From Eledone cirrhosa (taxonomy: Eukaryota): 64,000 nt of DNA. The stretch is taken from the NCBI GenBank assembly GCA_964016885.1, contig OZ024742.1:299212001-299276000 (forward strand), written 5' to 3'. Shown one piece after another: positions 1 through 62,719 of this stretch. Below the pieces are notes generated by a model. The model worked only from the letters and a program-made list of their open reading frames with translations, had not been told where the DNA came from and made no database searches. Every line of letters starts with the position of its first letter. The stretch's first letter is position 1. Both the position numbers and the translations under genes were made by a program.

Positions 1-1574
1 ACACCAACTTGCATCTCCTCTTGCCAATCTGTGGCGGAACTCACTGGATGCTGGATATGTGCCAGAAAACCTTCTATCCCAGTCTGTTGTCCCAGTTTTC
101 AAAAAGGGAAACAAATCCCTTGCCGTGAATTACCGTCCAATCTCACTCACCTCTCATATCATTAAGGTATTTGAGAGAGTGGTGAGATCGCGAATGACCC
201 ACTTCCTTGAGAGTAACAATATGCTGAACTCCAACCAGCATGGATTCCGTAATGGAAGGGATTGCCTGACGCAGCTACTGCATCACTTTGATGACATTTT
301 GAGAGCCTTGGGAGAGGGATCCAACACTGATGTTATCTACCTTGATTTCAGCAAGGCCTTTGACAGGGTTGATCATAACATTCTACTGAGAAAGCTGTCC
401 AATATTGGTGTCACTGGAAAGCTGCTGCAGTGGATCAAGAGCTTCCTGTCAAATAGAACCCAACATGTTGTAGTTGAAGGAGTCAAATCCAGCCCAGCCA
501 AAGTCAGTAGTGGGGTCCCACAAGGCACTGTGTTGGGCCCACTTCTCTTCATCATCTATATTAATGACATCACTGACATCATCAAACACAGCAACATTAA
601 AATTTTCGCTGATGATTCCAAGCTCCAAAAGGTCATCAATGGCGTGAATGACCGGATAAGCCTTCAGTCAGACCTACTGGCTGTTACCCAATGGGCGGAA
701 AAGAACAACATGTTACTGAACGAAGACAAATTCGAACTGATCCACTTTGGAAAAGAGGATGCTCTGAAACTCCCGTACTCCCTTCCCTCCGGGGAAACTC
801 TCGTGGCATCTAACAACATCAGAGACTTGGGAGTAACCGTGGACAGCAACATAAGCTGGGCCACGCATATAAGCAGCAAAGTTGACATGGCCCGCAGAAT
901 GTGTTCCTGGATCCTCAGAACCTTCCAGTCGAGAGATTCCCACACCATTATCCTTCTCTTCTCTACTTTTGCCCGACCACACCTTGAATACTGTTGTCCA
1001 CTGTGGTCTCCCCACACGAAACAAAGTATCATGAAACTTGAAGCTCCTCAAAGGGCAATCACGAAAAAGATAGATGGCATGTCAGACCTTGACTACTGGG
1101 GTCGACTAGAAAACCTGAAACTTTACTCACTCCAACGTCGCCGTGAGCGTTATATTATCTGCATGATGTGGAAAATGTTCCATCATCACTGCCCAAATGA
1201 TGTTGGCATCGCCTTCAAGATACACCCAAGGCTTGGGCCCCATGCTATCCGTCCCATTCAAAAATCTAAATCGCAACTCATAAACAACAATACGGCACAA
1301 TTATTTCACCTCAATCGGCCCTGCTCTCTTCAACATCACGCCAGGACACGTCAAAACAGAAACTGACCACACAAAATTCAAGAAGTCTTTGGACAAATTC
1401 CTCCAAGTAATCCCGGACAAACCACCCACACCCGGATATGTCTCCGCAAACAGTAATTCTCTTCTCGAATGGGCCATGGTGCCCAAATCCCGAATTGAAA
1501 GACTTCGCCAGGTGGTGCTATTAAGTTAGACATGGCCTGGGCCAATACTGGCCAAAACATTTCAAAGTTATTCA
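1..1574 (+). mobile_element. 3' part of a CR1/L2/Jockey-group non-LTR retrotransposon (LINE), truncated by the window edge
   Basis: RT ORF 59..1366 with a frameshift near 1290; the shifted frame continues to a TGA at ~1496-1498. Short 3' UTR ends in TTCAAAGTTA x2 followed by (TA)n. Confidence 0.9.
59..1366 (+). CDS. LINE reverse transcriptase (ORF2 C-terminal part, frameshifted near the end)
   Basis: Motifs NYRPISLTS, QHGFR, YLDFSKAFDRVDH, GVPQGTVLGPLLF, FADD and RPHLEYC..WSP. Confidence 0.9.
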   Translation: MPENLLSQSVVPVFKKGNKSLAVNYRPISLTSHIIKVFERVVRSRMTHFLESNNMLNSNQHGFRNGRDCLTQLLHHFDDILRALGEGSNTDVIYLDFSKAFDRVDHNILLRKLSNIGVTGKLLQWIKSFLSNRTQHVVVEGVKSSPAKVSSGVPQGTVLGPLLFIIYINDITDIIKHSNIKIFADDSKLQKVINGVNDRISLQSDLLAVTQWAEKNNMLLNEDKFELIHFGKEDALKLPYSLPSGETLVASNNIRDLGVTVDSNISWATHISSKVDMARRMCSWILRTFQSRDSHTIILLFSTFARPHLEYCCPLWSPHTKQSIMKLEAPQRAITKKIDGMSDLDYWGRLENLKLYSLQRRRERYIICMMWKMFHHHCPNDVGIAFKIHPRLGPHAIRPIQKSKSQLINNNTAQLFHLNRPCSLQHHARTRQNRN

Positions 1575-11161: not shown

Positions 11162-11220
11162 TACATTTTATTATACATATTTCAGATGTACAACAGTACG
11201 TCCTCATCAGACAAAATATA
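11162..11220 (-). ncRNA. Type I hammerhead ribozyme at the 3' terminus of PLE1
   Basis: TATATTTTGT-CTGATGA-GGACGTAC tgtt GTACATCT-GAAA-TATGTA-TA-ATAAAATGTA. Stem I is 10 bp with two G-U pairs and the triplet is AUA. Confidence 0.85.
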
Positions 11221-12600: not shown

Positions 12601-14776
12601 TTAAGTGTTTCTCTCTCTTTTCTTTTCCCCCGTTTTGTGGGAGGCTAAGAATGTGGACGTAGCTTTATGGAGGCAACTAGAGAATAATTCACTCTTTTTG
12701 TTAATTAGGGTTTCATAGTTATTAATAATCAACAGGGTCTCCAATGTACAGAGCGCGCAGTTATTTGATATACTAGAGTTGCGGTAAACCCCACAGTTCC
12801 GAAGTTTAGTCCAAAGAATTGAGTATTTTAAATTCCTCTCTTTTAATGACCATATGAGCTGTGATAAAGACGTTGATGATTTCCTCTTGGAGTTCGAGAA
12901 AGAGCATTTATGGTTCGCAAATCTGGCTTTAAATGTAGAAGAAGTCGATCCTATGGAGTTGTATGTGTTGTGATCATTTTTTCGGTGCATTTATAAACCA
13001 AATTAGTATCTAGACAATTATTTTGCAAAGGGCAATCAGTTTTATTTCTACAATTACATTTTGGTTTAGTATCATTTATGTTAACTCTATTATTAAGATC
13101 ATTATGCTGGTTTTGTTTTAGGATTTTAGTGTTTAATTTGACAATGTTTTGGGCCATGTTCATAGTTGTAGAATACGAGAATTTAAATGGATGTCTATTA
13201 AAAATGGAATGGTATTTATGTTGAGTAGGGAAAGAGGTGTCCAAAGCGTTAAAGAATAATTTTGCAATTGGTGTTTTAACTGCGATCGAAGCAGGAGGGG
13301 TGAACCATATGACTGATTTAGTTCTAGTTCTTATCCTCGATTTATTTGGCGTATGGGTGTTTGAATTATAATTATTAGAGTTTATATTATATATGTTATT
13401 ATTTTTATTAAGATTAATACTTGGATTATTATTATCTACATATTCTATATTATTCATATATCCTGCTCTTTTTAACGCGTTGTAGTATTCAGCGTTTTCA
13501 TCGAATATAGCCTTATTGGCTGATATTTTATTAATTCGTTTTTGCACACTATTTACTATAGCTTTTTTTTTTACAGATTTAGGGTGATTGGAATGGTTAC
13601 TAACATAGTTTAAGTTTTCATTGGGCTTATGAAAAGGGTAATAGAAGCCAGTGTTTAAGTTAAAGGTAACGTCTTGGAAATTAACTATTTTGGTACAAAT
13701 TTCTACTTCTAACTTAAGGTCGTACATTTTAAAGAATTTTATTATACTTTTCTTTACTCTATTTAGTTCTATATTGTTGTGTTTGACCACGGTATATAAA
13801 ATGTCGTCCCTATATAAACCACCGGTAATCTCCGGCAGTTTTCTATTTATCATATTTAATATGAAAATTCCCAGAAGATCTGTGATTTGCACGGAATCGG
13901 ATGCCCCCATAGTGATATCAAAGTTTCTATCTCTATCTGAGCGGGTCCAATGTTCGTTGTTGAAGTTAATAAGAGTTCTTCTGGCGGTTAGTATTATATC
14001 TATTTCATCCGTGGTTATATCAGTATGATTATAAGCATATGAAAGAGCCTTATTTAGAAGGTTAGGTGTTATGGAAGAATAGTAACTAGTAATGTCCATC
14101 TGGATGAATTTATGGTTTTTCTTATCTTCTATATTCGTGTACCATTCTATGACTTCCTTTGTATCTTTCCATAAGCTCAAATTAGATCTCAATTTAAGAG
14201 GGGGTAATATTCTATCTATGATGTTTTTACTGATTACTCCGATATCCGATTTCGATGGAGCAATCAGTCTAACTGGCATCTCTTCCTCAAAGTTTCTTTT
14301 GTGATCCTTCAAGTTAATCCACGGCTGCCTAGGTAAGAATGGCTCGGTTCTTCCTTCTATTCCTAAATTGGTAATTAATTTGTAGGCTTCTTCATTAATT
14401 TCAGTAAGATCATCAGCCGGGGCTTTTTTGTAATTTTTCCTAAGTTCTTTTAAAATCAAGTTGTTATATTCATCTTTGCTTATCCCATATAAATTATTAG
14501 TTTTGTCCGATTTAACCAATACTTTGTTACATTTTTTATTTCCGTGATTTTTTTCTTTTAGAGTTCTAAGGTGACCTATATATGGGTTTTTCCTAAATTT
14601 AATTTTTTTTCAAAAACCTCCAGAAGTTTGTTGTATGGAGGATTCTTTCTTGATTTAAAAAAAGATTCAAAATGATTGGTGTTGGTTTTCTTTTCGGCAT
14701 CTTTATTTTCGAAATTAAAAGCTCTCCATCTCAATCTTCTTATAAATGAATTTGTCTGTTCGATAGTTTTCCTCAT
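12601..14776 (-). pseudogene. PLE RT-endonuclease ORF (three frames)
   Basis: Consecutive ORFs in the track reconstruct one PLE polyprotein, paralogous to 58121..59602. Confidence 0.88.
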
Positions 14777-15062: not shown

Positions 15063-15509
15063 AGGGAGAGTGAGGGAAAGAAAAAGAGTGAGGAAGGGAG
15101 AGAGAGTGGGATAAGAAAATGCATACATACATAGATACATTTAAGAGATTTATATATATATATAAATACAGGTATATAACAAAACTTTATTTGCTGTAGA
15201 TACAGCTATATATGTCTCTTTGTGAATACGTATGTATTTTTGTACCTATCCGCCCAATTATATATTTCTATGCAGTCATAAATATAAATTACACAAACAT
15301 AGACATACACGCAGAAAGGCCTTTATACCTCATACACATGCGCATATATATATATATTGTTATGCTTTGGGAGGGTCATGTTGCCAATAAGAAACACACG
15401 CACCAGTCGCTTTCACTCCAATTTATTATAAGTTAAATTTATAAATTTAAGAATTTATAAATTTCCGGTTGGTTGGTTGGTTCCACAACCGGACGGCTGT
15501 ACATATATT

Positions 15510-15552
15510 GTCAAAGTTCTTTCGTCACACATTCTATGACCTCTTCAGTAAC
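15510..15552 (-). ncRNA. Type I hammerhead ribozyme in the inverted pLTR
   Basis: GTTA-CTGAAGA-G-GTCATA gaatg TGTGAC-GAAA-GAAC-TT-TGAC. Confidence 0.7.
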
Positions 15553-16378
15553 TGGGGATTCTTTTCTTCTTTGGAATAGAATAGAAAGAACTAGGAATAA
15601 GGTTAATAGAAAAAACTCATGGTATGATAGCAATAAATACCAGAGTGTAATGTTCATCAATACAGCCCCTAGAGGTGAATTAGCTTACAAATTTAGAAGG
15701 GCCCTAGATAAACATAAACTCAATATTAAGATAATAGAAAGACCAGGTACCTCCATAAAAACACTTATTAGCAATACATACCCCTTTCAAAGACCTCCCT
15801 GTATAGATAAGAAATGTATAATCTGTAAACTAAGCCCCCATATTAACTGTAAAACTAGAAATGTAGTATATAGCATAAGATGTACTGAAGGACAACGTAG
15901 AGACAAAAATATAGTGTACATAGGTGAGACAGCTCGTAGTATAGGAGAACGGATAAATGAACACTGGCGAGCGCTTCAAGATAGAAAAGAATCATCTGTA
16001 CTCCACCAACATGCTAAAATAGAACATAAGGGTAAATTAGAGAACATAGAAATAAAAATAGAATCTACACACAGAAAAGACGCAATGTTTAGACAAATTA
16101 CAGAGGCAATAAACATGAACTCCAACCAAAATTAAATAGAAAACATGAATGGAATAGCAATATCACAACTTACAATTAAGGACAAATTGAAAACACACAC
16201 ACACATAGAACAAACAACCAACCAGTAACATGTAAATAAACAAATAAATAAACAAATATAAACACACACAGACACCCGGATGTAACACATGCGCAAACTA
16301 AGCACACAACACACACAAAAATAAGATGGCGTAGGTCAGAACAAAGGAGAGGCACAAAAACAAAGAAAAGAATCCCCA

Positions 16379-22501: not shown

Positions 22502-24586
22502 GGTGGACCAGTATTTTTCCCCCTGGTAAAATGGTGTACATTATTCGATTTTTTCAGTAAAATTTCAGTAAGATTTTCAGGTTCTCTTAATAGAACATCA
22601 AAAATCTTAACAATAAAAGGTGTGAAATGATATTCACTATATATACATACACATACATATATTCACTACATATATATATATATATATATATACATATATA
22701 CATATATATACATATATATATGCACATACATTTTTGTGTGTTGCACCATAGAGCATGTGTGTTTACGTATGTCATTGTGTTCATATGTGGGTAGAGATGT
22801 GTGCTGATGTAGGTATGTATGTTGACGTGTGTATGTTGTGGGTTCGTCTTAGGGAGAAGTGTTTAGACGGGGTCCGTATTTGTTAATGAAGTAAGATTCC
22901 TTGCTGATGCGCTGGGTGTGGGTGGCATTATCTTTAAATTTGTAGAGGGGAAAGATTCTGAAGTTGGGATGATTTTGGGCGGCACAGGTATCAATGTGTT
23001 CACTCAGTGGTATTTTCCTGTATTCCCGTATTTTAATTTGGGATCTATGGACAGTCATGCGTTGGCGGAGGCTGTTTTTGGTCTGGCCTATGTATTGTTT
23101 TCGACAACCTGAACAAGTTAATACATATATTAGATTTTCCGATGCACATGTGAAATTGTGTTTTACTATAAAACGTTGTCCATCTTTGAAATAGAATTCC
23201 GAACCCTCTATTAGGTTGATGCAAATGCCACAATTGGGTCTATCGCATTTTTTTACTGTGGGTTTCGTTGTTGTGGTTGGCAGTACTTTAGCATGTGTTA
23301 AGATTTTTTCATTGACTTGGATTGTCTTTTGCTCTTTATGATATCGTGTGTTCGTAGAATTTGGTTCATTCTATGGTCCTTTTTCAATACAGGGATGTTC
23401 TGGAGGATGGTGTCAAAGGCCTCATTGTTGAGGGGGTTGTGTGTGGAGATGTATGGAAGAGCTTTTAGTTTTGGTTGATTTACTTTAGGGTGTCTAAGGT
23501 CCTGGGTGCTGAGTTTTAGGGCACGTTGGATTCCATTGTCAATTAGTGATGCAGGGTAGTCACTGCCTATGAGTGTGTCCTTTAGTTCTTGTAGCCGTAA
23601 GTAGCAGATGTTTTTATTGGAGACTAGAGTACAGATTCTCTTGGCTAAGTTGTAGGGAATATTAATTTTAACGTGTCTAGGGTGGCAAGAGTTGAAGGGG
23701 AGATATTGCTTGGAGTCTGTGGGCTTGTAGTATATGTCTGTTTCTATTTTTTTGTTATGGATCTTAATGAGGATGTCGAGGAAGGGGAGTTGTTGATGGC
23801 TGTATTCCATCGTGAAGTTAATATTTGTGTTGAGCCCATATATAAGGGTGTGAAATTCTTTAAGTTTTTCGATGTTTTCATGCCAAAGGATGAAGCAGTC
23901 ATCTAGATATCGCTTCCAGTTCCTTTCAATGTGTAAGGGGAGGGTGTTTCCAAATTTGTTTAGGACTTTAGTGTAGACGGTGATTTCCAGGTATCCCATG
24001 ACTAGGTTGGGAGGGGGCTGTTTTCGTTCCCATAGCGGTCCCAGATTTCTGCCTGTAGGGTTTGTTATTGAAAACGAAGTAATTGTTCTCCAAGATAAAT
24101 TTGAGTCCCTCTATCACGAATTCTTTTTTGATGCGTTGTGGGAGTTCATTGTGGAAATTATCCAGCCAGAATTGGATAGCTTCTGTTCCTAGGTTGTGGG
24201 GGATGTTGGAGTATAGGTTGACTACATCGAACGTCACTAGTAGGGTTTGTTCAGAAAGTGGCATATTAGGGAGGTGATTGAGCATATCTAGGTCGTCCCT
24301 TATATAGCTTTTGATGTGCTTGAGGAAGGGTTTGAGAAGGGTATCAATGAAGTTGCTAAGACGGTGCGTTTCGCAAGCGGTGCCTGCTATTATAGGTCTT
24401 AATTTGAGATCATTGGGTGAGGGGACATTGATGACTATGTCTGTGGCTTCCTTGCATGCCTTACTTATTGATTCGCTTTTATGTACTTTAGGGATACCGT
24501 AGAAAAGGCTGGATTTACTTGTGAAGTCTGTGATGAAGCTGAATTCCTTGTTAGTGAGTCCTTCTTTGTATTGGTTGATTAGAGTT
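21637..24586 (-). mobile_element. Penelope-like element (Neptune-type RT plus C-terminal GIY-YIG), 5'-truncated and frameshifted
   Basis: ORFs 23968..24285, 23298..23999 and 22849..23058 with LVTFDVVNLYSNIP, QKSGTAMGTKTAP, WKRYLDDCF, YYKPTDSKQYL...SCHP and ESYFINKYGPRLN. Both ends lie in (TA)n. Confidence 0.9.
21757..21796 (-). ncRNA. Degenerate U3-A8 hammerhead in the Neptune-type 3' terminus
   Basis: TTT-TTGAAAA-GCATTT ag AAATGC-GCAA-CCGG-TA-AAA. A13 is mutated to C and stem I is weak. Confidence 0.5.
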
Positions 24587-28000: not shown

Positions 28001-28700
28001 GACCACAAAATGAATGCAAATTTGACCGTGACATGATTTAAACTCAAGACCGCTGAGAGCGAGAACCCATAACCCGATACATACACGAATGTAATTTAAC
28101 TGCCCACTCAATTTAGTTCTCGCTTAACCGATATGGATGATTTTCAGATGAATGTGCTTTAGCCTCACACATCACATTTTACAACCGCAATTAAGTAAGT
28201 CATTTTGTTGGAATTGAAATGTTAAGTGAAACGTTAATGTTTGAATAGAACTGGAATTGAATATATGAATTATTATTGGAATAATCCAATTTAGATAAAG
28301 TTTCAGTGAGCGTTCCAGAAGGTGAATAAAATCAGACTCGAAAAAGGCACATATAATTATAAGTGTACTATTAATGCCATCATACACAGTAACGATTTTT
28401 ATGTCTAAATATTCAGATGCTGTAACATTATCATAAATAAAAATATTGCATTAGCAGAAGTATATATACACACAAATAACCATGGTCACGCAACACACGC
28501 GAAAATTGGTTATATCAAGTAATGCCTGGGCTTGACGCTTTTTACAGTGAGGAAAGGCCTTGCACTGGGTCAACCCCAATGTAAACAATTGTGTCAAGTA
28601 TCTAAACTGGAAAGGCCAACATCATTGGTTGCCATCGTGCCGCAGGTTTTACATCAGAATTTTCCTTCTCCTAGAATGATATCCAAAACGTACATACATA

Positions 28701-29740
28701 CATGGTGGCTGCCAACTCGTTTTCGAGTACGGCCACTACCTTATATCCATGTAGGAGAACCCCTACCGATGCGCTGAACGAGTGTGTCTTTTTAGTCCAG
28801 CCAGCGACTTGAAAACTCTGGTACAAACACTACACTTGTGACAATTATTGACACATAGTGCTGGGCCCATGGTACCATGTGATGACAAGTGCAGAGAGAT
28901 CTCCAGATATAAAGCAATGCCTGTGCCGTGAAGCTTTTATAGTGAGCAAAGGCACTGCACAAAGCCAGTCCCACTCTCTTAACCAAGATGATATTTACCA
29001 AAAAGAAGAACAAGTCAACATCATTGGATACCATCAGGGTTGCAGGTGTTATACATACATACATACATACATACATACATACATACATACATACATACAT
29101 ACATACATACATACATACATACATACATACATGGTGGCTGCCAACTCGTTTTTGAGTACGGCCACCGCTTTATATCCATGTAGGAGAACCCTTACCGATG
29201 CGCTGAACGAGTGTGACTTTTTAGTCCAGCCAGCGACTTGAAAACTCTGGTACAAACACTACACTTGTGACAATTATTGACACATAGTGCTGGGCCGATG
29301 GTACCATGTAACGACAAGTGCAGAGAGATCTCCAGATATAAAGCAATGCCTGTGCCGTGAAGCTTTTATAGTGAGCAAAGGCACTGCACAAAGCCAGTCC
29401 CACTCTGTTAACCAAGATGATATTTACCAAAAAGAAGAACAAGTCAACATCATTGGATACCATCAGGGTTGCAGGTGTTATATCAGAGTTTTCCTTCTCC
29501 TAGAATTCTGCCTTGACAAAGGCTAAGGGGTCATCTCTCCCGGTGATTTTGGATGGCCATTGACTCTTAAGAGCTCCTTTGCCCTTTGACAGGTTTTGTT
29601 TTTAGTCCTGCAGGATGTCCAAAGTCACCCTCCTCACCAAGAAACCTTGGTGGGGTTGCCAGTTTAGTCACCAACGACCCGACCATGAGACAGGTTGTAC
29701 TGGGATACATGTTACCAGTAGCACCAACTGGTGACCTGAC
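28701..29740 (-). mobile_element. Tandem of a truncated (28701..29050) and a full (29131..29740) ~610-bp non-coding LINE-derived element in (TACA)n
   Basis: Near-identical to the reverse complement of 57308..57917. Contains CTAGGAGAAGGAAAACTCTGA, a motif typical of non-LTR 5' UTRs. A diverged relative lies at ~28500..28680. Confidence 0.75.
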
Positions 29741-29769
29741 ATACATACATACATACATACATACATACA

Positions 29770-29801
<32 letters not shown>

Positions 29802-35072: not shown

Positions 35073-35273
35073 CATTATTATTATTATTATTAAATGCCAT
35101 GGTTGACGGAGGCTCGGCTCTGTAAGGTATAGTAATTTTTAACCGCTATAACAATTGTAAATTGTTTAAAACTTTAACCAAATTGTAGACAAAAACACCC
35201 TCCTCCTCGTGAGAGGAGTATTTCTGCCCGTTATTTGGCCCTTCGGGGTTAAATAACCGCTTATTGGGGTTTT

Positions 35274-37450
35274 GTGCCCAATATTTATTTTAAACAAAAA
35301 AAAAACATGGCTACAAAAAAGATTTTTCACAAGTCACTCCCACTCATTCCGTCTTCTTCTTCCTCAATCGTCACTACATCAGAGAGAAGATTATCTCTCT
35401 CCCTCCCTTCTCTAAATGTGTCTCTCTCCCTCCCTTCTCTTTCGCAAGCGACGCCAGTAAAGAAAAAGAAATATATAGTTTCGGATAGTTTCCAAGAGCA
35501 CGTGCAAAACGTGAAACATTTCTCCACGACGACGTCAACGACGAAAAATGTTTGCGGTAAATACGGAAAGCCATTTCATTCGTCTGACGTCATAAATAAT
35601 AGCAGTAGCAGTCGTAATAACAGCAGCAGCAGCAGCAACAGTGAAAAGGAAAACAACAGTAGCAGCCGCAACAGCATCAGCAGCAGCATAACCAACAAAA
35701 GCATTAGCAGCAACAGCAACAACAACAGCAGCAGCAGCAGCAGCAACAACAACAACAACCACAGCAATAGCGGCGGCGGCAGTCGTAGTACCAGCAGCAA
35801 CAACAAAAGTAACAGCAGCTCTGACGACAACAACAACAACAACAAAGAAAAATCAATCTCATTTGCAGGTATCGCAAAGAAACTGGAAACCATCCTTATA
35901 ACAAATGAGGAATTACAGGAAGTAAAGAAGATGGTGACGAAAACCGGACACCGAGCAATCTGCAAGGCAGCCGAAAATTTTTTCGAAACCCAACACCACT
36001 GTACGGTCACGTACCGTACAGTAAGCACAAAATCCCGTAGGGTTGAAAGAGCCACAGAGGCTCAAATACAAAAAGCCTTAGGGTCTGTGTGGCAGCGGAA
36101 AACGCATATCACCCGAGGCAGGAAATATGCCACCGTGGACGTTCTTTTTGCCACACCCCAGGAGGCAAAGGCTCAATCCTTAGTGACCCTAAGGAGCGAG
36201 GAAATTGTGTTGGTGCCCTCCTACTGCGGACAAAAAATTGTGAGGGTTAAACTGACCCACGTCCACCCCGAGATGGCCCCTTCTTGGCTGGCCGCGTCTG
36301 TCCTCGTCGGAATCAAGGACAAAACAACTGTACTGCAAGTACAGAAAAAAGTAAGAGAAGATTGGGTAGGCACCTCCATTGAGATGTTAATCCAAACCAA
36401 CCAGGAGTGCATCGAAGCTATCCCAGATGTGATAGACTTCGATAACGGCACTCAAATGCCCATAAGTGTTGAGGGCAAACGCCCGAAATGCTTTCGCTGT
36501 GGATCGAAGACTCACCTCAGGGTCTTCTGCAATGAGAAGACCCCGAGAAAGGAGAAAACCCCCCTCCTTCCGAAACCGGCTCCACTGCTACCAGCAACAG
36601 GACAGGCGGCAACCAGGATGGATAGGTCCGTGGCACCCATACCCACGCCAATGAAATCAAGAACAGCAGCAGCAGTGGAAGTATTAACAACAACAACAGC
36701 AATACCAACTGCAGCTGCAACAGAGACTCCACTGCAAACATCACCAACAACAACAAATGAAAGAGTGGAGCTGGTACCCTCCAGAATCGGACATGGAGTG
36801 TGAGGTGGGAGAGGGATGGCAAAAGGTTGCAAGAAGGCACAAACGCAGAAGCAGCGCATCGTCGCCTTCGAAAAGGGAGGAAAGAAATGAAAAAAGGGTA
36901 AAGGCTACTGCGAAGAATCTTACAGCAGCAACACCACCAACACCATCACCACCCACACTAGCACCACCATCACCACCGGCGGCAAACCGACCGCAAACAA
37001 CAACACCTTCAATACCACCACCACAAGCACCAACATCTCAAACACAACAACAAAACACACACACCCTGGAACAACGACAAGAAAATAGGAGAACCACACC
37101 CCACCCCCAGAAAAGCAATAAATACACACAACAAGAAACTAATTACTTACATAATTGAACACACAGACATTTCCCAGCACGACTACATAATACCAGCACC
37201 AATCAAAACACCAACGAACATATGACTGGTAAGAATAGCACAGAAGCAATACACAAACATTAAAACGAAATTCCCCAACGCAGTTGGTGATTTCAGAGAC
37301 CTAGGAGGGACACTCAACCGGAGAATATATTCGGATATACTCACAAAAGAGCCGAAAATTAGCCGAAGGGACGATTCAACGGTCCCTTCACCAGACGATC
37401 AAGTGAAAATGGATGGAGAAACCATCCTTCCTCTACGAGAAGTAAGGTAA
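35274..37450 (+). pseudogene. Tx1-type ORF1 (Ser/Asn-rich N-terminus, CCHC zinc knuckle, Pro/Thr-rich tail), frameshifted near 36760
   Basis: ORFs 35274..36803 and 36757..37158; motif RPKCFRCGSKTHLRVFC. Confidence 0.8.
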
Positions 37451-37484
37451 GTGTTCTTTCCCATCTTTTCCACTCCATTTCAAC

Positions 37485-40429
37485 ATGACCTCATTCAGAA
37501 TAGGCAGCATAAATGCGCGTGGCTTGGGGTCATCATGGAAGCAGGGCCACCTGATCAACGACCTCAGGTCACTAAACATAGATGTAGTGGCCATCAGCGA
37601 GACCAGAATCTCCGAAGCACGGGCCTTCGCACCGATCTTCGGCGGCTACGGGGTATACGCATCTCCCAGCCGTCCTGGATCGGGGGAGGAGTTGCTGTGC
37701 TTTTTCGGAGAGGTTTGGATCTCGCAATACGTGCCATCTTCCTGGACCCAGAAGGTAAGGTGGTGGTGCTAGACGTGAGCAGCGGAGACGGGCAAGCTTT
37801 CAGGCTAGTGGCCGTCTATGCCACGACAGGAGCAGGGCGGCCTGATTTCTTCCGGCGTCTGGAGACCTTTCTTGGAACGTCCCGCTCTTTAGTGTTAGTG
37901 GGCGACTGGAACGGGATCTTAGATGCACGCTGGAACTGTGTGGGATTAGCGGATAGGGGAGGAGGGTGCAAGAGCCTCACCAACCTGCTCAGGCGTTTTG
38001 AACTGTCTGACAGGTACCGATTGGATTTCCCGAATGTGCCAATGTGGACTTAGACAAACCGCATCGGGTCATCCAGATCATATCTAGATAGAGTATTCTG
38101 TAGGGAAATAGATAGGTCAAGCATAGGCTGTCCACAATTCAAGATAGTCAGCTACACGGACCACAAATTCGTGAACTGTGTGCTTGACTTAGATAGGATT
38201 CATAGACGAGGACCCGGCTACGGGAAGCTAAACGCGTCCTTACCAGCGCGCAAGGCCTACAGAGACCGGATTAGCGAACTAGTTAAGCGGGTGTTGACGG
38301 GGGCCATCGTCAACAACAAGTGGTGGTTTGCTCTGAAAAGAGCGATTAGAATAGAGTCCATTTGGTTTAGTAAAGCTTTAGCAATAGATAAAAATAGAGC
38401 AGAGGGAGAATTAGTTAGACAATTAGACGAGGTGCTTAGCAAAGGCATCGCGACCGACGTAGTTGCGGCGAAATTGGCCATTGACCAATTCTTCAATGCA
38501 AAGCACAAAGGCTGCGTTGTCAGAGCTAGGGTGCGTGCTCTCAAACACGAGGGGACGAAAGCCGTTCAATGGGCCCGAGTGGCGGAGGCGCGTCGTGGCA
38601 ACAAAGCCACGATCCGGTCTTTGGTGGACCACGACGGGCGCATGCTACTCTATCCCGGGCAGATGTGTGAAGCTTTTCAGCGACACTTCGCTCAGCTGTT
38701 CGGAGGCAGCGGTGGGCCGAGTCGAGGGATGGGCTTTAGTGTCTACCTCGACGGACTGCCGCGGCTCTCGGCCACTGAGGCGGAGTGTTGCGAAAAACCG
38801 ATAACAGCCGCTGAAGTACGGGAGGCAATGACTGGCTGCACAAGGGGTAAATCGCCTGGTTTGGATGGTCTGCCCTATGAACTTTACGTACAGATGCCAG
38901 ACTTGTTCGGAGGCCTCTTGGCGGACGTCTACTGCAACTGGCAACAGAACGGGAGAATTCCCAGCTCTGTGAGCCGAGGAGCAGTGGCGCTCCTGAGAAA
39001 GGATCCGAACAAGGGGGTTAACATAGATAATTTCAGGCCCATATCTCTGCTAAACACAGAGTTCAAGATTTTGACCAAGGTGCTAGCAAAGAGGTTGGCG
39101 TTTGACGTTGGTGGTCTGGTGGGAGAGGCGCAGACGTGCGCCATTCCCGACAGATCCATCCACGGCAACCTCCACCTCATGCGATACATCGTAGAGAGGG
39201 TAGCTAGGGAATCTGGCACGGGTGGGTCCTTGATCAATTTAGATCAGTCGAAAGCTTTCGATAGGGTCGACCATCGGTACCTAGCGGCAGTCCTGAGGGC
39301 GGCTGGCTTTGGGCCCGTCTTCAGAGGCTGGATCGCTGCCATGCACAGCGACATCTGCTCTGTGGTGAGAGTGAACGGTCACCTTTCGGAACCGTTCAAT
39401 ATCATGCGCTCGGTCCGCCAAGGATGTCCCCTCTCGTCCCCCTTGTACGTATTGACTCGCGAGCCATTACTGCACAAACTGGAGACGTTGAGCGGGGTCC
39501 CGCGCGAACTAGGGTGCGGAAGATCCGTGTCAGCATATGCAGACGATGTCACCGTAGTGGTGTCAAACGCCAAACATATCGAGGCGATCGGCACTACACT
39601 AAGAGAATACGAAGCGGTGACAGGAGCAATGATCAACCAGGAAAAGTCAGTGGGCCTGCAGCTCGGCACACGGAGAGGCAGGTCCATGCCGTGCAACAGC
39701 GTAGTCGGGCGCTGGACGCTCAGGCTACGACATCTCCACCTCTTCCTCGACGGTGATCAGGTGTGGTCGCCGTTTGCTAGACGCGTCTTTCCCCAGCTCG
39801 TTTCCTTGACTGAGCTGCATTCCTGGTTCAAGCGAAGACCGAGAGGGAGCGCTTGGATACTGGAATGTCTTCAGGCGCTCACAGCCTTCGGAAGAACTTT
39901 CGGGCCGGGGCCTATGGACAACTTCCAGAAATCCCTGGCCTGGCGGTGCTCCCAAGGAGCCTTGCCAGTTCGGGATAAACTCTACAGGCATGGAGGTGCC
40001 GTCAGCTGGGCATGTCCGAGATGCGCGCAGGGCGACGAAACCGTCCTGCACGCACTCGTCCAGTGTCCGAGAATTGCTCACTTGTGGGTTTATGTCGAAC
40101 ACCTGCTGTCGCGTGTAGGACGGATCCGGCTATCAGCTGAGTCCATCGTGAAGATTGCCCGGCCCTCTTCCTTTAGCCGGGAAGGGCAGGCAGTTTTTAT
40201 CTGTCTGGTGGCCATGGCGAAAGAGATAGTATGGTGGACACGTTTGAAAGGGCTGAAGACGAACACTTACCTCTTCGGTGATGCCCTGATTGACTTTTTC
40301 AAATTTCATTTGAAAAGGAAAATCAGGGTAGAGAGGGAAGTGCTCTCTTCCCAGCATTTTGTTGAAAGATGGGTGAGAGAAGCAAGAATGACCCGAGTGA
40401 ATGGGCCTACTCTGTGTATGTGTCTGTAA
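37485..40429 (+). pseudogene. Tx1-type ORF2 (AP endonuclease, RT, zinc finger)
   Basis: GSINARGL, VAISET, LVGDWN, GKSPGLDGL, NFRPISLLN, DQSKAFDRVDH, VRQGCPLS, AYADD and CPRC...ETVLH. Frameshift near 37670, stop at 38051, and an internal deletion near 39715. Confidence 0.9.
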
Positions 40430-56950: not shown

Positions 56951-57307
56951 CCTCCAATGTGGCTACGGAGCAAGGTTCCTCAACAGAGTACGTTGCTCAT
57001 AGATCGAAATGACGGGAAGAAAGAAGCAAAGAAAGAAAATGAACGGACAAGACCACACAAACACCATTTCACCCCATCATCTCTCAAACCCGTTGTTCTG
57101 TCGTATGATTTAACTTGAGAGGACTACAAAAAATTGCCGGCTCGTGCAACAGAAAATAAATATTTCTGCTGGTGTGATGTATCTGTGATGAAACGAACAA
57201 ATTAGATAGACTGATGGATAGATCGGAGAGAGAAGTAAAATAATCGCGGTTCAATTCGATCTTCGAGACAGCTTTGTTTATATATATGTATGTATGTATG
57301 TATATAT

Positions 57308-57917
57308 GTCAGGTCACCAGTTGGTGCTACTGGTAACATGTATCACGGTACAACCTGTCTCATGGTCGGGTCGTACACGACTAAACTGGCCACCCCACCA
57401 AGGTTTCTTGGTGAGGAGGGTGCCTTTGGACATCCTGCAGGACTAAAAACAAAACCTCTCAAAGGGCAAAGGAGCTTGTAAGAGTCAATGGCCATCCAAA
57501 ATCACCGGGAGAGATGACCCCTTAGCCTTTGTCAAGGCAGAATTCTAGGAGAAGGAAAACTCTGATATAACACCTGCAACCCTGATGGTATCCAATGATG
57601 ATGACTTGTTCTTCTTTTTGGTAAATATCATCTAGGTTAAGAGAGTGGGACTGGGCTTGTGCAGTGCCTTTGCTCACTATAAAAGCTTCACGGCACAAGC
57701 ATTGCTTTATATCTGGAGATCTCTCTGCACTTGTCGTCACTTGGTACCATGGGCCCAGCACTATGTGTCAATAATTGTCACAAGTGAAGTGTTTGTACCA
57801 GAGTCTTCAAGTCGCTGGCTGTACTGAAAAGTCACACTCGTTCAGCGCATCGGTAAGGGTTCTCCTACATGGATATAAAGTAGTGTCCGTACTCGAAAAA
57901 GAGTTGGCAGCCACCAT
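57308..57917 (+). mobile_element. ~610-bp non-coding LINE-derived element (full copy)
   Basis: Reverse complement of 29131..29740; flanked by (TATG)n and (TA)n. Confidence 0.8.
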
Positions 57918-57930
57918 ATATATATATATA

Positions 57931-60437
57931 CCAAAGATTAATATGGTTCGTTGATTACTCAATGAATATAGTTTTACAATAGATAAAAAGCACTCTACAA
58001 AGAAGTTTTCTGGAGTTATTAATATTATTCAGAATATTAATAAATGAAGACATTTACATAATCAAAATATGTTTTATATATATTTCTAAGGTACTGTGCT
58101 TTTTTTTCAGTACGTCCTCGGGTGAATTTTAAAGACCATAAAAGAAATTTCGAAGACCTGTTAGACTTATTGCACCTTCGAAATCTGACCTTGGAATAAT
58201 TAGTAAACACATAATAGATAGTATTTTGCCAATGTTAAAATTGAGGTCAAGGCTTAACTTATGGAAGGGCACTAGTGAAGTCATAGATTGGTTCAATAAT
58301 ATCAAAATTAAGAAAAATCATAAATTCATTCAAATGGACATAGCGAGTTATTATTCCTCAATAACTCCTAACCTACTAAATAAGGCGCTTTCATATGCAT
58401 ATCGGATCTATCTAGCGACGAGATTATTATCATTTTAACGGCAAGGGGAACCTTGATCGATTTTAATAATGATTTTTGGACTAGATCTGATAGGCAGAAT
58501 AATTTTGACATTACTATGGGCTCGTCTGATTCGGCGCAAGTTACCGATCTTGTGGGAATTTTCATCCTTAATATGATAAATAGAAACCTGCCGGAGATTA
58601 CCGGTGGTTTATATAGAGACGACATATTATTTACTTAGTTAGGCATATAATAGCGAATTAAATAGAGAGAAGAAAGGAATTATAAAATTCTCTAAAAATT
58701 ATGACCTGAAATTAGCAGTAGAAAATAACAATAAAATAGTTAATTTTTTAGATGTAACTCTTAATTTAAACTCAGGCTTGTATTACCCCTTCCATAAACT
58801 CAATGAAAACTTAAATTATGTTAGCTTTTACTCTAATCATCCTAAAAGTGTTAAAAATGCAATAGTCAATAGTGTCCAACAACGAATTACCAGACTATCT
58901 GCCAATAGAACCATATTTAATAATATGGTTGTATATTACAATGAAGCGTTACATAAAGCAGGATATAAAAATAATATTGAATATGTAGAAAAAAATAATA
59001 TTAATTATAAACACAGTATTCATAATAATAATAATAATACATTAGTTAATGTGAATAACAATAACAATAGTTTAAATATGAATAATAGTAGAACACCTAG
59101 AAATAATAGTGTTAATACGAATAGTTTAGGTTATAGAAATAACATTGAATTGAATTGTAACTGTAGAAGGAAATCTGAATGCCCTTTACAAAATAATTGC
59201 CTTGACAAGAATCTAGTGTATAAATGTACCATTAAGACAAATAATAATAATACTTATAACTACATTGATGCCACTTCATCAAACTTTAAGTTTCGCTTTT
59301 CCAATCATAAACATTCGTTTTCTAATCCAGATAAACAATTTTCCACATCACTATCACAATTAATATGGTCTTTGAAAGAGAAAAATATTAAATACTCAAT
59401 TTCTTGGAGTAAATTAAAGAATTCTGATTCCTACCGTAACTCTTCCATTTAACCAGATTGCAATCTTTGCAATTTAGAGACTCTATTAATAATTACAAAT
59501 TATGGTAATTTAATTAATAAGAAGAAAGAATTATTTGGAAGTTGTCTACATAAGTCTGGAAGAACCTTTCAAGCATTATATAAATTTCGAAAAAAATATT
59601 GACTATTAATAATTCTTGAAATATTATTATATACATAACGTTTTGCCTTACCTTAAACATTGTATATCGTTTGTTTTTTTATATAGTAAATTAATCTCAT
59701 GATGAGTCTCGGTATCCTAGGTTTAGATTTAGAAAGGTCATTGTTTAACTAGAAATTTCTGAATTTGTGGTTTGAAATATCTTTTGGCTTTCAAAATACT
59801 TAAATATCTTAATGGACGAGTTATCTTCCTTTGTTTACATTCTTCGTAAATAATTTTGTTCTGTCCAAATTGCTTGCTAATGTATATTTAACATGATTTA
59901 TACAGTTTAATAATATATGAAAAATCCTTAAAGGGAAACTATATATAATAAGATGTAGTTACGGAAGTAAAATCGAAATAATAATTCTTTTAAGTGTAAA
60001 TATAACTACTAATTAATCCTGTAATGAAAAGACAACCATTGAATTGAAATGATTTTATAATGAAAATAGAATAATTCAGATAATAATTCTTACTGCTTGT
60101 GATATATGCATGGGTTTTAATAAATATCCTTATACATATTTAATAGGTATTTAAACATGCTTTAAAGATAAAATTGTTTTTGAATATTGTAACAAAATAT
60201 TTAGTAAATTAAACTATCGTTCTGGTTGCTATAGAAAATATTTTATATTGTTTAATTTTGATATATTATATTAGTATAATTAGCTTAAACATAACCAAAT
60301 ACAAAAGATATTAAAAATGTTATGGTATTTAATTTGTCGCCTATATTTGACTTAATATTTGAAAGCAACGGTCACACATCATTTCTCTTTCTTTCTTTTT
60401 TGCCGTTATTTCATCTTCTTCTTCTTCTTCTCTCTAT

Positions 60438-61520: not shown

Positions 61521-61760
61521 GTGCGACGTTATATGTATGTATTTATCTAAAAAGAGAAAAACTAAGAATTATAGAGCAACATCGCTAAATCGCCTAATGC
61601 GATCTATAGAGCATTGAAAATTTAAATTTTCTTGCTCGGGATCTTAACGGGATCTTCTAAATATTTGCTCTACGGTTCTTATATATTTGATATATGTTTA
61701 TCCTTATCGAGCCCTCTTTGGATTTTAGTCTTCAAATTCATTATTATTACTATATATATA

Positions 61761-62569
61761 TATGATACATTTTATTACTAATTATATCTAAATGTTTCTT
61801 CTCTCTTCATAATGTATTTTTAACTCTGATACTGGTTCAGTCTGGTTCAACCGGATTGGTCTGTCCCAGTCATTCAATGAGCAACATCGGTGAGGTTGGC
61901 ACCCTTAACTCACGGTTGGGTGTGGATGCATTCATGTATATGTGTGTGTCCGCATGTATCTGTGTGTTTCTAAATTTATTGTTAATAACTCCCTCTGGTT
62001 GAGTAATCTTTGAAGTGTGGTGACTGCTGGAAAGCTGCCATTACTCATACTTCTCGCCTCCTTCACCACCTCTTCTACGGCTTCGATATAAATACCCCCT
62101 CCGCCTCCGTGGTATTTTCTTCGGGGTTTTAAGAGGCTTAGCTCTGTTTCTCGACTGTTATATCGCGTGACTATCTCCCCCTCCGCGTTTTGGGATTCTT
62201 TCTCACGTCGTGTAGACGCGTTCTTGAAGCTAGTAAAATGAGGTATCCTCTTGATAAGTCGGCAGACCTCGCAAGGACTCTATATCTTTATGATGTATTG
62301 TTTTTGTTTATGCCACGAAACTACGTAGTCGAGGAATCTAGGAGCAGTTTAGGTATGATACATTTTATTACTAATTATATCTAAATGTTTCTTCTCTCTT
62401 CATAATGTATTTTTAACTCTGATACTGGTTCAGTCTGGTTCAACCGGATTGGTCTGTCCCAGTCATTCATTGAGCAACATCGGTGAGGTTGGCACCCTTA
62501 ACTCACGGTTGGGTGTGGATGCATTCATGTATACGTGTGTGTCCGCATGTATCTGTGTGTTTCTACATT

Positions 62570-62573
<4 letters not shown>
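61761..62573 (+). mobile_element. ORF-less hammerhead-containing element: 593-nt monomer plus 220-nt terminal redundancy (retrozyme-like, family D)
   Basis: 61761..61980 is repeated at 62354..62573. HHR at 62246..62335; (TA)n on both flanks. Confidence 0.8.
62246..62335 (+). ncRNA. Type I hammerhead, U3-A8 variant with a long loop II
   Basis: TCCTC-TTGATAA-GTcGGCA...TGCCAC-GAAA-CTACGTAG-TC-GAGGA. Stem I is a perfect 5 bp, stem III is the palindrome ACUACGUAGU, and the triplet is GUC. Confidence 0.8.
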
Positions 62574-62629
<56 letters not shown>

Positions 62630-62719
62630 GTATATATACATATTTATATATATATATATCTTGACCTGGTGATAGCTGGTATATTTCCATAGAGATCCTT
62701 ATTTGTTGGGTGTTCCCTC

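Follow-up and report, generated by a model that had tools for sequence, protein, structure and literature searches.

A truncated copy of a non-coding hammerhead retrozyme family in Eledone cirrhosa, with two fixed 3′ ends in (TA)n and a probable Hydra-type PLE partner

What is the hammerhead-bearing repeat that lies in (TA)n at positions 61761..62573 of a 64,000-nucleotide stretch of the Eledone cirrhosa genome (the window), and by which enzyme, and from which form of RNA, was it copied into place? How animal retrozymes insert, and why PLE insertions have inverted arms and a tail at one end, are stated to be open in the accessible parts of PMC7229834, PMC8557442 and bioRxiv 2026.07.22.740005. 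The element is a one-armed insertion on the plus strand, comprising 1.37 turns of a 593-nt unit between (TA)n tracts. Its first 220-bp repeat copy (61761..61980, +) spans unit positions 24-243, numbered from the predicted cleavage site, and the second (62354..62573, +) lies one period of 593 nt downstream and differs from it at three sites (61877/62470, 61941/62534 and 61973/62566). A preliminary description from the sequence letters, which had reported a near-identical 220-bp terminal repeat of this period set in (TA)n, is thus borne out with 3 mismatches in 220. The 5′ end is a truncation at +24, joined to the target via TAT, and the 3′ end, joined to (TA)n, is that of the second turn at a site here called B. 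A private T at +239 is present in both turns and in 0/224 observations at other loci. On the left, the target remnant (61751..61760) terminates another short dispersed repeat whose end, at 61658-61752, finishes in the (TA)n where the retrozyme was inserted; the right target tract occupies 62574..62659. The flanks of copies are (TA)n, where a target-site duplication is unreadable. Contigs of unrecorded type, when aligned to the element, run out into (TA)n loose ends at 61817, 61979 and 62410; since these contigs possibly derive from the assembled sample, they are not treated as independent evidence.

The element appears to encode nothing. Stop-to-stop frames within it reach at most 115 aa, the longest being on the minus strand, and Pfam showed nothing over the cut-off for the three frames tested, in keeping with the earlier remark that there is no credible ORF. 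Self-BLAST found no further match to the element in the 64-kb window, so that it is unrelated at the DNA level to the other repeats there, as had been judged by eye for one family of them; two PLE families from the window likewise have no DNA likeness to the 593-nt unit. A TATA-like box followed by a GC-rich box (62085..62094, +) may be an internal promoter.

The preliminary description placed the element in a retrozyme or PLE-type non-autonomous family, and this holds: a 23-nt ribozyme pattern has 7,458 exact matches in the 3.0-Gb assembly (control, 0), so the element is not single-copy but one of at least 7,458 units of a non-LTR retrozyme. The loci analysed were 22 top-scoring ones and 50 spanning the first 100 matches along contig C1 (the unbiased set); arms below 85-88% identity or 50-60 nt, overlapping duplicate loci and locus L092 were removed before counting. 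The 126 full units in the fetched, partly overlapping loci are mostly 593, 591 or 595 nt long. An older subfamily, with units near 590 nt and 79% identity to the young one, has 102 exact matches. The short units occur as dispersed tandem copies of variable length, at least two cleavage-junction crossings being found in one arm at 22/48 unbiased loci. The preliminary description would have been contradicted by an RT ORF always lying between repeats; none lies between units in the loci examined. A short-loop version of the ribozyme has ten matches; the four loci inspected (L189, L193, L195 and L197) are deletion copies of the 593-nt family.

The ribozyme is predicted to be a type I hammerhead at 62246..62335 (+), cleaving after 62330, where a GUC ends. 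Helix I pairs 62246-50 with 62331-35 (+). The core at 62251-57 (+) reads UUGAUAA, with U3-A8 in place of C3-G8; helix II (62258-64 with 62311-16, +) has a bulged C and surrounds a 46-nt hairpin insert; the GAAA lies at 62317-20 (+); and helix III (62320..62329, +) is a 10-nt palindrome for which pairing between two tandem ribozymes is predicted and which a double change leaves palindromic in an older subfamily. The preliminary description of one well-formed hammerhead therefore stands as to a single type I ribozyme, but not as to a canonical one, given the U3-A8 core, the bulged helix II and the 46-nt insert. Within the window Rfam gave nothing at gathering score, and between 61700 and 62700 no hammerhead at E<=10. 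Helices I and II form in the predicted fold of 62244-62337 (z -2.27; 3/200 shuffles equally good), and a wider stretch around the ribozyme folds with z -1.16. Since U3 is present in 145/145 and A8 in 143/145 unit observations, the variant core is a family trait. All ribozyme positions compared between the young and old subfamilies are identical (42/42), as against 421/541 elsewhere. In 25 loci selected by a pattern outside the ribozyme, helix III takes the form of two palindromes differing by two bases (10 and 9 loci), the single-change form being absent. Such a covarying pair could not form within a single monomer; it speaks for a double hammerhead, and we infer that ribozymes in multimers cleave in this way via the palindromic helix III. 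With one ribozyme, the window copy itself could not release a monomer, or a circle, by double cleavage. The U3-A8 core also occurs in Schistosoma Cercyon-related PLE ribozymes, a bulged helix II and a palindromic helix III are on record for Drosophila virilis Penelope, and a dimer model is given as well, in the accessible parts of PMC4209133; the 46-nt hairpin insert in loop 2 and the non-coding carrier unit set the present ribozyme apart from the PLE hammerheads treated there. Two further ideas were dropped: a spliced ORF (start codon in helix II, donor-like site at +23), because the codon is lost in the old subfamily and the frames are short; and a pairing of the second end site, A, with the ribozyme, which is predicted in some folds only and is not claimed.

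Folding of the 593-nt circle, proposed earlier as a check, gave -170 kcal/mol, with z -5.3 against 40 shuffles (minus strand, -118); four monomers folded as circles ranged from z -3.5 to -8.1. Changed pairs were retained across the subfamilies in 29/45 and 30/37 cases (null means 38% and 45%), just 5 and 2 of the retained pairs being double changes in this comparison of two lineages. As far as sequence and modelling reach, the element would thus have the features of a retrozyme, namely a type I hammerhead, tandem units, lack of coding and a predicted self-paired circle. It resembles metazoan non-LTR retrozymes, as outlined in the accessible parts of PMC7229834 and bioRxiv 10.64898/2026.07.22.740005, in its non-coding tandem units, type I hammerhead, thousands of copies and compact predicted circle, and in the co-existence of PLEs, which are proposed there as partners. 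Its 593-nt unit exceeds the 150-450 bp given in 2020 (PMC7229834) and falls inside the 51-972 bp of the 2026 preprint. Unlike those retrozymes, as far as they are described there, it has a PLE-style U3-A8 ribozyme and a strict (TA)n target, and its two fixed priming ends and inverted arms are absent from the descriptions compared.

Copies of the family have two fixed 3′ ends. Site A (+80; 61807..61817 and 62400..62410, +) is read through in both turns of the window copy, although roughly half of all arms terminate there; site B, which spans +242 to +250, lies at 61970..61980 and 62563..62573 (+), the latter being the end used by the window insertion. Among unbiased young one-armed loci, 12 end at A, 11 at B and 2 elsewhere. 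Two-armed inverted young loci combine one A with one B in 22/24 cases, or 22/22 with both ends defined; A/A or B/B was never seen and two loci had an undefined end (p=5e-7). In the old set, the junction pairs are 28 A+B, 2 B/B, 1 A/A and 11 undefined, so that 28/31 defined pairs are A+B. A two-end rule also holds in the autonomous PLEs at all loci with both ends seen: 8/8 in Neptune-like family 1, 6/6 in Neptune-like family 2 and 12/12 in the first Hydra-type family. Three bases ahead of the junction at site A, 9/54 terminal copies but 0/116 internal ones carry the target-like A in place of G (p=2e-5), a pattern that base-pairing of the cut (TA)n end to the RNA across a G-T wobble would produce. 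Other AU/GU-rich patches of equal quality in the unit are not used as ends, so pairing alone does not select the priming site. The 5′ ends, in contrast, scatter in the unbiased set. The preliminary coordinates, a start at +24 and an end at +243, are right, but the start carries no signal: +24 had looked special in 4/31 ends of the top-score set, whose query began there, and is found in 0/74 unbiased ends. Likewise, the suggested search for variable permutation and tandem arrays revealed arrays and variable lengths, but the copies are not freely permuted, their 3′ ends falling at two sites.

The hallmarks of insertion (5′ truncation, partial tandems, an inverted copy, a microsatellite target and two internal 3′ ends) match a non-autonomous PLE. 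A LINE-dependent SINE would have a single fixed 3′ end with a tail and monomeric copies; here there are two internal ends and multi-turn arms. Recombination of DNA, spreading a local duplication or a satellite-like repeat with an incidental ribozyme look-alike, would account for the tandem arrays, some of which show DNA-level homogenisation, and for the lack of an Rfam hammerhead match. It does not account for thousands of dispersed copies with fixed 3′ and variable 5′ ends, inverted arms and (TA)n targets, or for a ribozyme conserved across 21% divergence; the 7,458 ribozyme matches and the fixed-end counts of the unbiased set refute it, and we accord it next to no probability.

The form of the template is read from variants within and between arms, omitting the AT-rich columns 110-118, 196-205, 236-251 and 549-555. 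Sequence mismatch amounts to 0.54% among the turns of a single arm, 0.52% when arms are compared and 1.5-4.4% from locus to locus, and private variants are usually common to both arms and all turns. Three rare variants at locus L090 occur in all 7-8 copies across both arms, and deletions are common to both arms in L189 and L195 and to all turns in L193 and L197. In loci chosen to cross the cleavage junction at least once, 73 arms cross it 102 times and only two stops fall within 10 nt of it; such free crossing excludes a cleaved linear monomer and leaves a circle or an uncleaved multimer. The best reading is rolling reverse transcription of circular RNA, and the copies were probably made from a circle. 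Shared variants are also expected from two RNAs of one donor locus and are thus not unique to a circle, and the junction sequence is the same in tandem DNA copies, so that junction reads cannot tell a circle from a DNA-encoded multimer.

The same element and the same Hydra-type enzyme might instead rely on a linear multimeric transcript that is left uncleaved and starts at an internal promoter within a tandem array, with long arrays rebuilt by unequal DNA exchange and the ribozyme acting at another step. Young 5′ ends concentrate at +340 to +415, beside the TATA-like box (23/71, scan P<0.003), as this alternative would have it, but the cluster is broad and is missing from the old set (15/89 in the same interval). 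In the three long arrays L186-L188, neighbouring turns share variants in blocks, a pattern that one circle would not give; L090, with 4.9 and 2.7 turns, has on the other hand just two single-copy differences. In 11/56 pairs, where 5.8 are expected, the arms stop no more than 30 nt apart, a weak excess (p=0.026, one duplicated locus being counted twice). In vitro, insertion by an anole PLE was unaffected by ribozyme mutants and unprocessed RNA was used, which counts against a circle, according to the available part of PMC11167929. Conversely, strong ribozyme conservation and palindrome covariation imply that cleavage in multimers matters. On balance we regard the linear multimer as a possible but rather unlikely template, and continue to favour the circle.

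A candidate for the enzyme emerges from two small predicted helices. The helix after site A (61823..61882, again at 62416-62475, +) consists of CUC/GAG, a 2-nt 3′ bulge and UG/CA, closes a long hairpin and is a candidate RT-binding element. That after site B (61988..62004, +) has CUC/GAG, a 2-nt bulge and CC/GG, in a 17-nt geometry also present in three Hydra-type PLE families. The young and old monomers tested each contain two occurrences of the strict motif and no more, lying 6-8 nt past A and past B, and at least two motifs were obtained in 1/1000 and 0/1000 shuffles; the motif had been defined after four instances had been seen. It is absent from the end regions of three control families (two Neptune-like and one 320-nt retrozyme). 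Two sister families of Hydra type (60-61% protein identity), retrieved once the motif had been fixed, also have both helices, each next to an end of the family in question. In its most frequent young form (97 observations) the B helix keeps both stems but, owing to a UC bulge and an outer mismatch, fails the strict motif, and folding energies do not make the small B helix stable in isolation. After A, the old retrozyme and two Hydra-type families have a UA bulge, whereas the young retrozyme and the third Hydra-type family, which is rich in long open frames, have UU; a partner switch between the retrozyme subfamilies is possible on this pattern.

The candidate partner was found among the first 100 matches listed in a census of U3-A8 ribozymes (8,511 matches; control, 1,059). 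This first autonomous Hydra-type family has 968 ribozyme matches, ends at about +52 and +159, and 877-aa open frames in 3/144 scored matches. The candidate partners have DKT, CxCX5C and CxxC/CxH motifs, a C-terminal endonuclease, no CCHH and a (TA)n target, and by comparison of motifs with the accessible part of PMC8557442 they appear to be Hydra-type. They measure about 5.1-5.6 kb and have RWR for RWK, whereas the Hydra clade is described there as <3 kb. With the Hydra-clade PLEs of Craig et al. (2021; PMC8557442, as far as available) the retrozyme has in common a (TA)n target and hammerheads; it differs from them in encoding nothing and in having no overall likeness to their repeats. The lack of an ORF likewise separates it from the PLEs in the available parts of PMC8557442 and PMC11167929.

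Alignment of the stretch after B to the Hydra-type repeat beats all 1,000 shuffles in both subfamilies, that anchored at A is weak (equalled by 43 and 84 of 1000 shuffles), and that of the whole monomer is not above shuffles. Homology across the pLTR to the autonomous PLEs sampled, a handful of families, was not found, only the two helices being common, and origin of the retrozyme as a deletion derivative of a sampled PLE is not supported by these comparisons. The link to a partner thus differs from the pLTR-wide homology given for Xenopus families in the available part of bioRxiv 10.64898/2026.07.22.740005. The head-to-tail arrays and non-autonomous nature of Chlamys MRC1 are shared by the 593-nt family, but MRC1-type elements resemble their partners at the 3′ end and their clade is described without canonical hammerheads in the accessible text of Craig et al. 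(2021; PMC8557442). The occurrence of the helix at the same two places in three Hydra-type families, and its absence from the controls, make a Hydra-type RT-endonuclease dimer the likely mobiliser of the retrozyme in trans.

An enzyme from another PLE family, Neptune-like or unsampled, with the helix a matter of chance or a relic, is improbable to our minds. It draws on the many PLE families here that target (TA)n and all obey the two-end rule, on an abundant and very young Neptune-like family, and on the small number of families compared; but both subfamilies and three Hydra-type families have the motif at each of the two sites, with A- and B-type inner pairs kept, and both Neptune-like families lack it. 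Tail length, the distance between the ends, also separates the Neptune-like elements (about 34-40 nt) from the Hydra-type families (about 90-107 nt) and the retrozyme (163 nt; range 163-170 nt). The high score of an alignment with Neptune-like family 2 reflects TG/TA low complexity. Loose ends offered three leads to a partner: in two cases the pattern matched nothing, and the third was an ordinary truncated copy.

Returning to the Hydra-type enzyme, we hold it to be probable overall that the window element is a truncated copy of a non-coding hammerhead family with two fixed ends in (TA)n, mobilised by such an enzyme acting on a probably circular RNA. A locus with at least two ribozymes would be transcribed, the ribozymes would pair via the palindromic helix III and cut, and a host ligase would close the released monomer into a circle. 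A protein dimer would then bind both bulged helices of one RNA and nick both (TA)n strands; the 3′ end of one strand would anneal at A and that of the other at B, in each case to the AU-rich patch 3-8 nt upstream of the helix. Each RT would go round the template over a distance that varies, producing tail-out inverted arms, or a single arm as in the window copy.

More tentatively, and with a somewhat less than even chance of being right, the 593-nt circle may be a mimic that retains only the ribozyme and two bulged helices from Hydra-type PLEs, one dimer gripping both helices on one circle and priming each cut strand at a different site by short base-pairing, while two RTs roll round by strand displacement and the extra tail is looped out as hairpins. 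In both the retrozyme and the first Hydra-type family, the tail is predicted to fold as linker, hairpin, linker, hairpin and short linker; with the hairpins taken out, a hand count speculatively leaves about 40 nt, near classical tails, such as the 30-40 nt given in the accessible parts of PMC8557442 and PMC11167929 (the latter for anole Poseidon), against 163-170 nt here. If true, the PLE 'tail' would measure the spacing between the two RNA-binding sites of the dimer. One site per strand is near-strict here, whereas in the anole in vitro system the start site was alike on the strands; the junctions here show primer-template pairing, whereas the anole PLE primed without target homology, as far as PMC11167929 was available. 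A literature search, in which coverage of subscription papers was limited, did not find the two-helix signal or the one-site-per-strand rule. The family supplies a candidate enzyme with intact frames, a 17-nt candidate helix, two mapped starts and the one-site-per-strand rule, and the existing in vitro assay, to judge from the accessible part of PMC11167929, makes both open questions testable. If the proposal is right, a short RNA tag steers a PLE enzyme to put non-coding cargo into (TA)n.

Other elements were noted alongside. A young Neptune-like PLE fragment lies at window positions 22852-24585 (-; L131-L150; 33,476 first-look candidates, many 784-aa frames); its (TA)n ends are about 34-40 nt apart and a scan found no hammerhead. 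A Neptune-like family (L279-L285) has a U3-A8-like core, ends at about +105 and +147 and poor helix I pairing. Hydra-type PLE fragments occupy 12604-14609 (-) and 58643-59449 (+), and two Hydra-type B helices lie 285 nt apart in the same orientation elsewhere (G000:C18:20413491 and 20413776), possibly a short non-autonomous derivative of that Hydra-type family. Ribozymes near 11215 (-) and 60774 (+) belong to a C3-G8 hammerhead family whose two ends are separated by about 90 nt, the first being followed by a simpler hairpin, ACUC/GAGU, and an abundant PLE at 15461-16132 (+; L151-L180; 66,264 first-look candidates) has a C3-G8 hammerhead after its ORF. A second non-coding U3-A8 retrozyme family (L252, L278, L290-L298) has units some 316-324 nt long and its ends near +134 and +167. 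Judged by eye on their translations alone, LINE-type RT fragments lie at 2-1363 (+) and a two-ORF LINE-like element at 35253-40426 (+). A 655-bp repeat at 28688-29773 and 57275-57929, its copies 94-97% identical, is flanked by (CATA)n.
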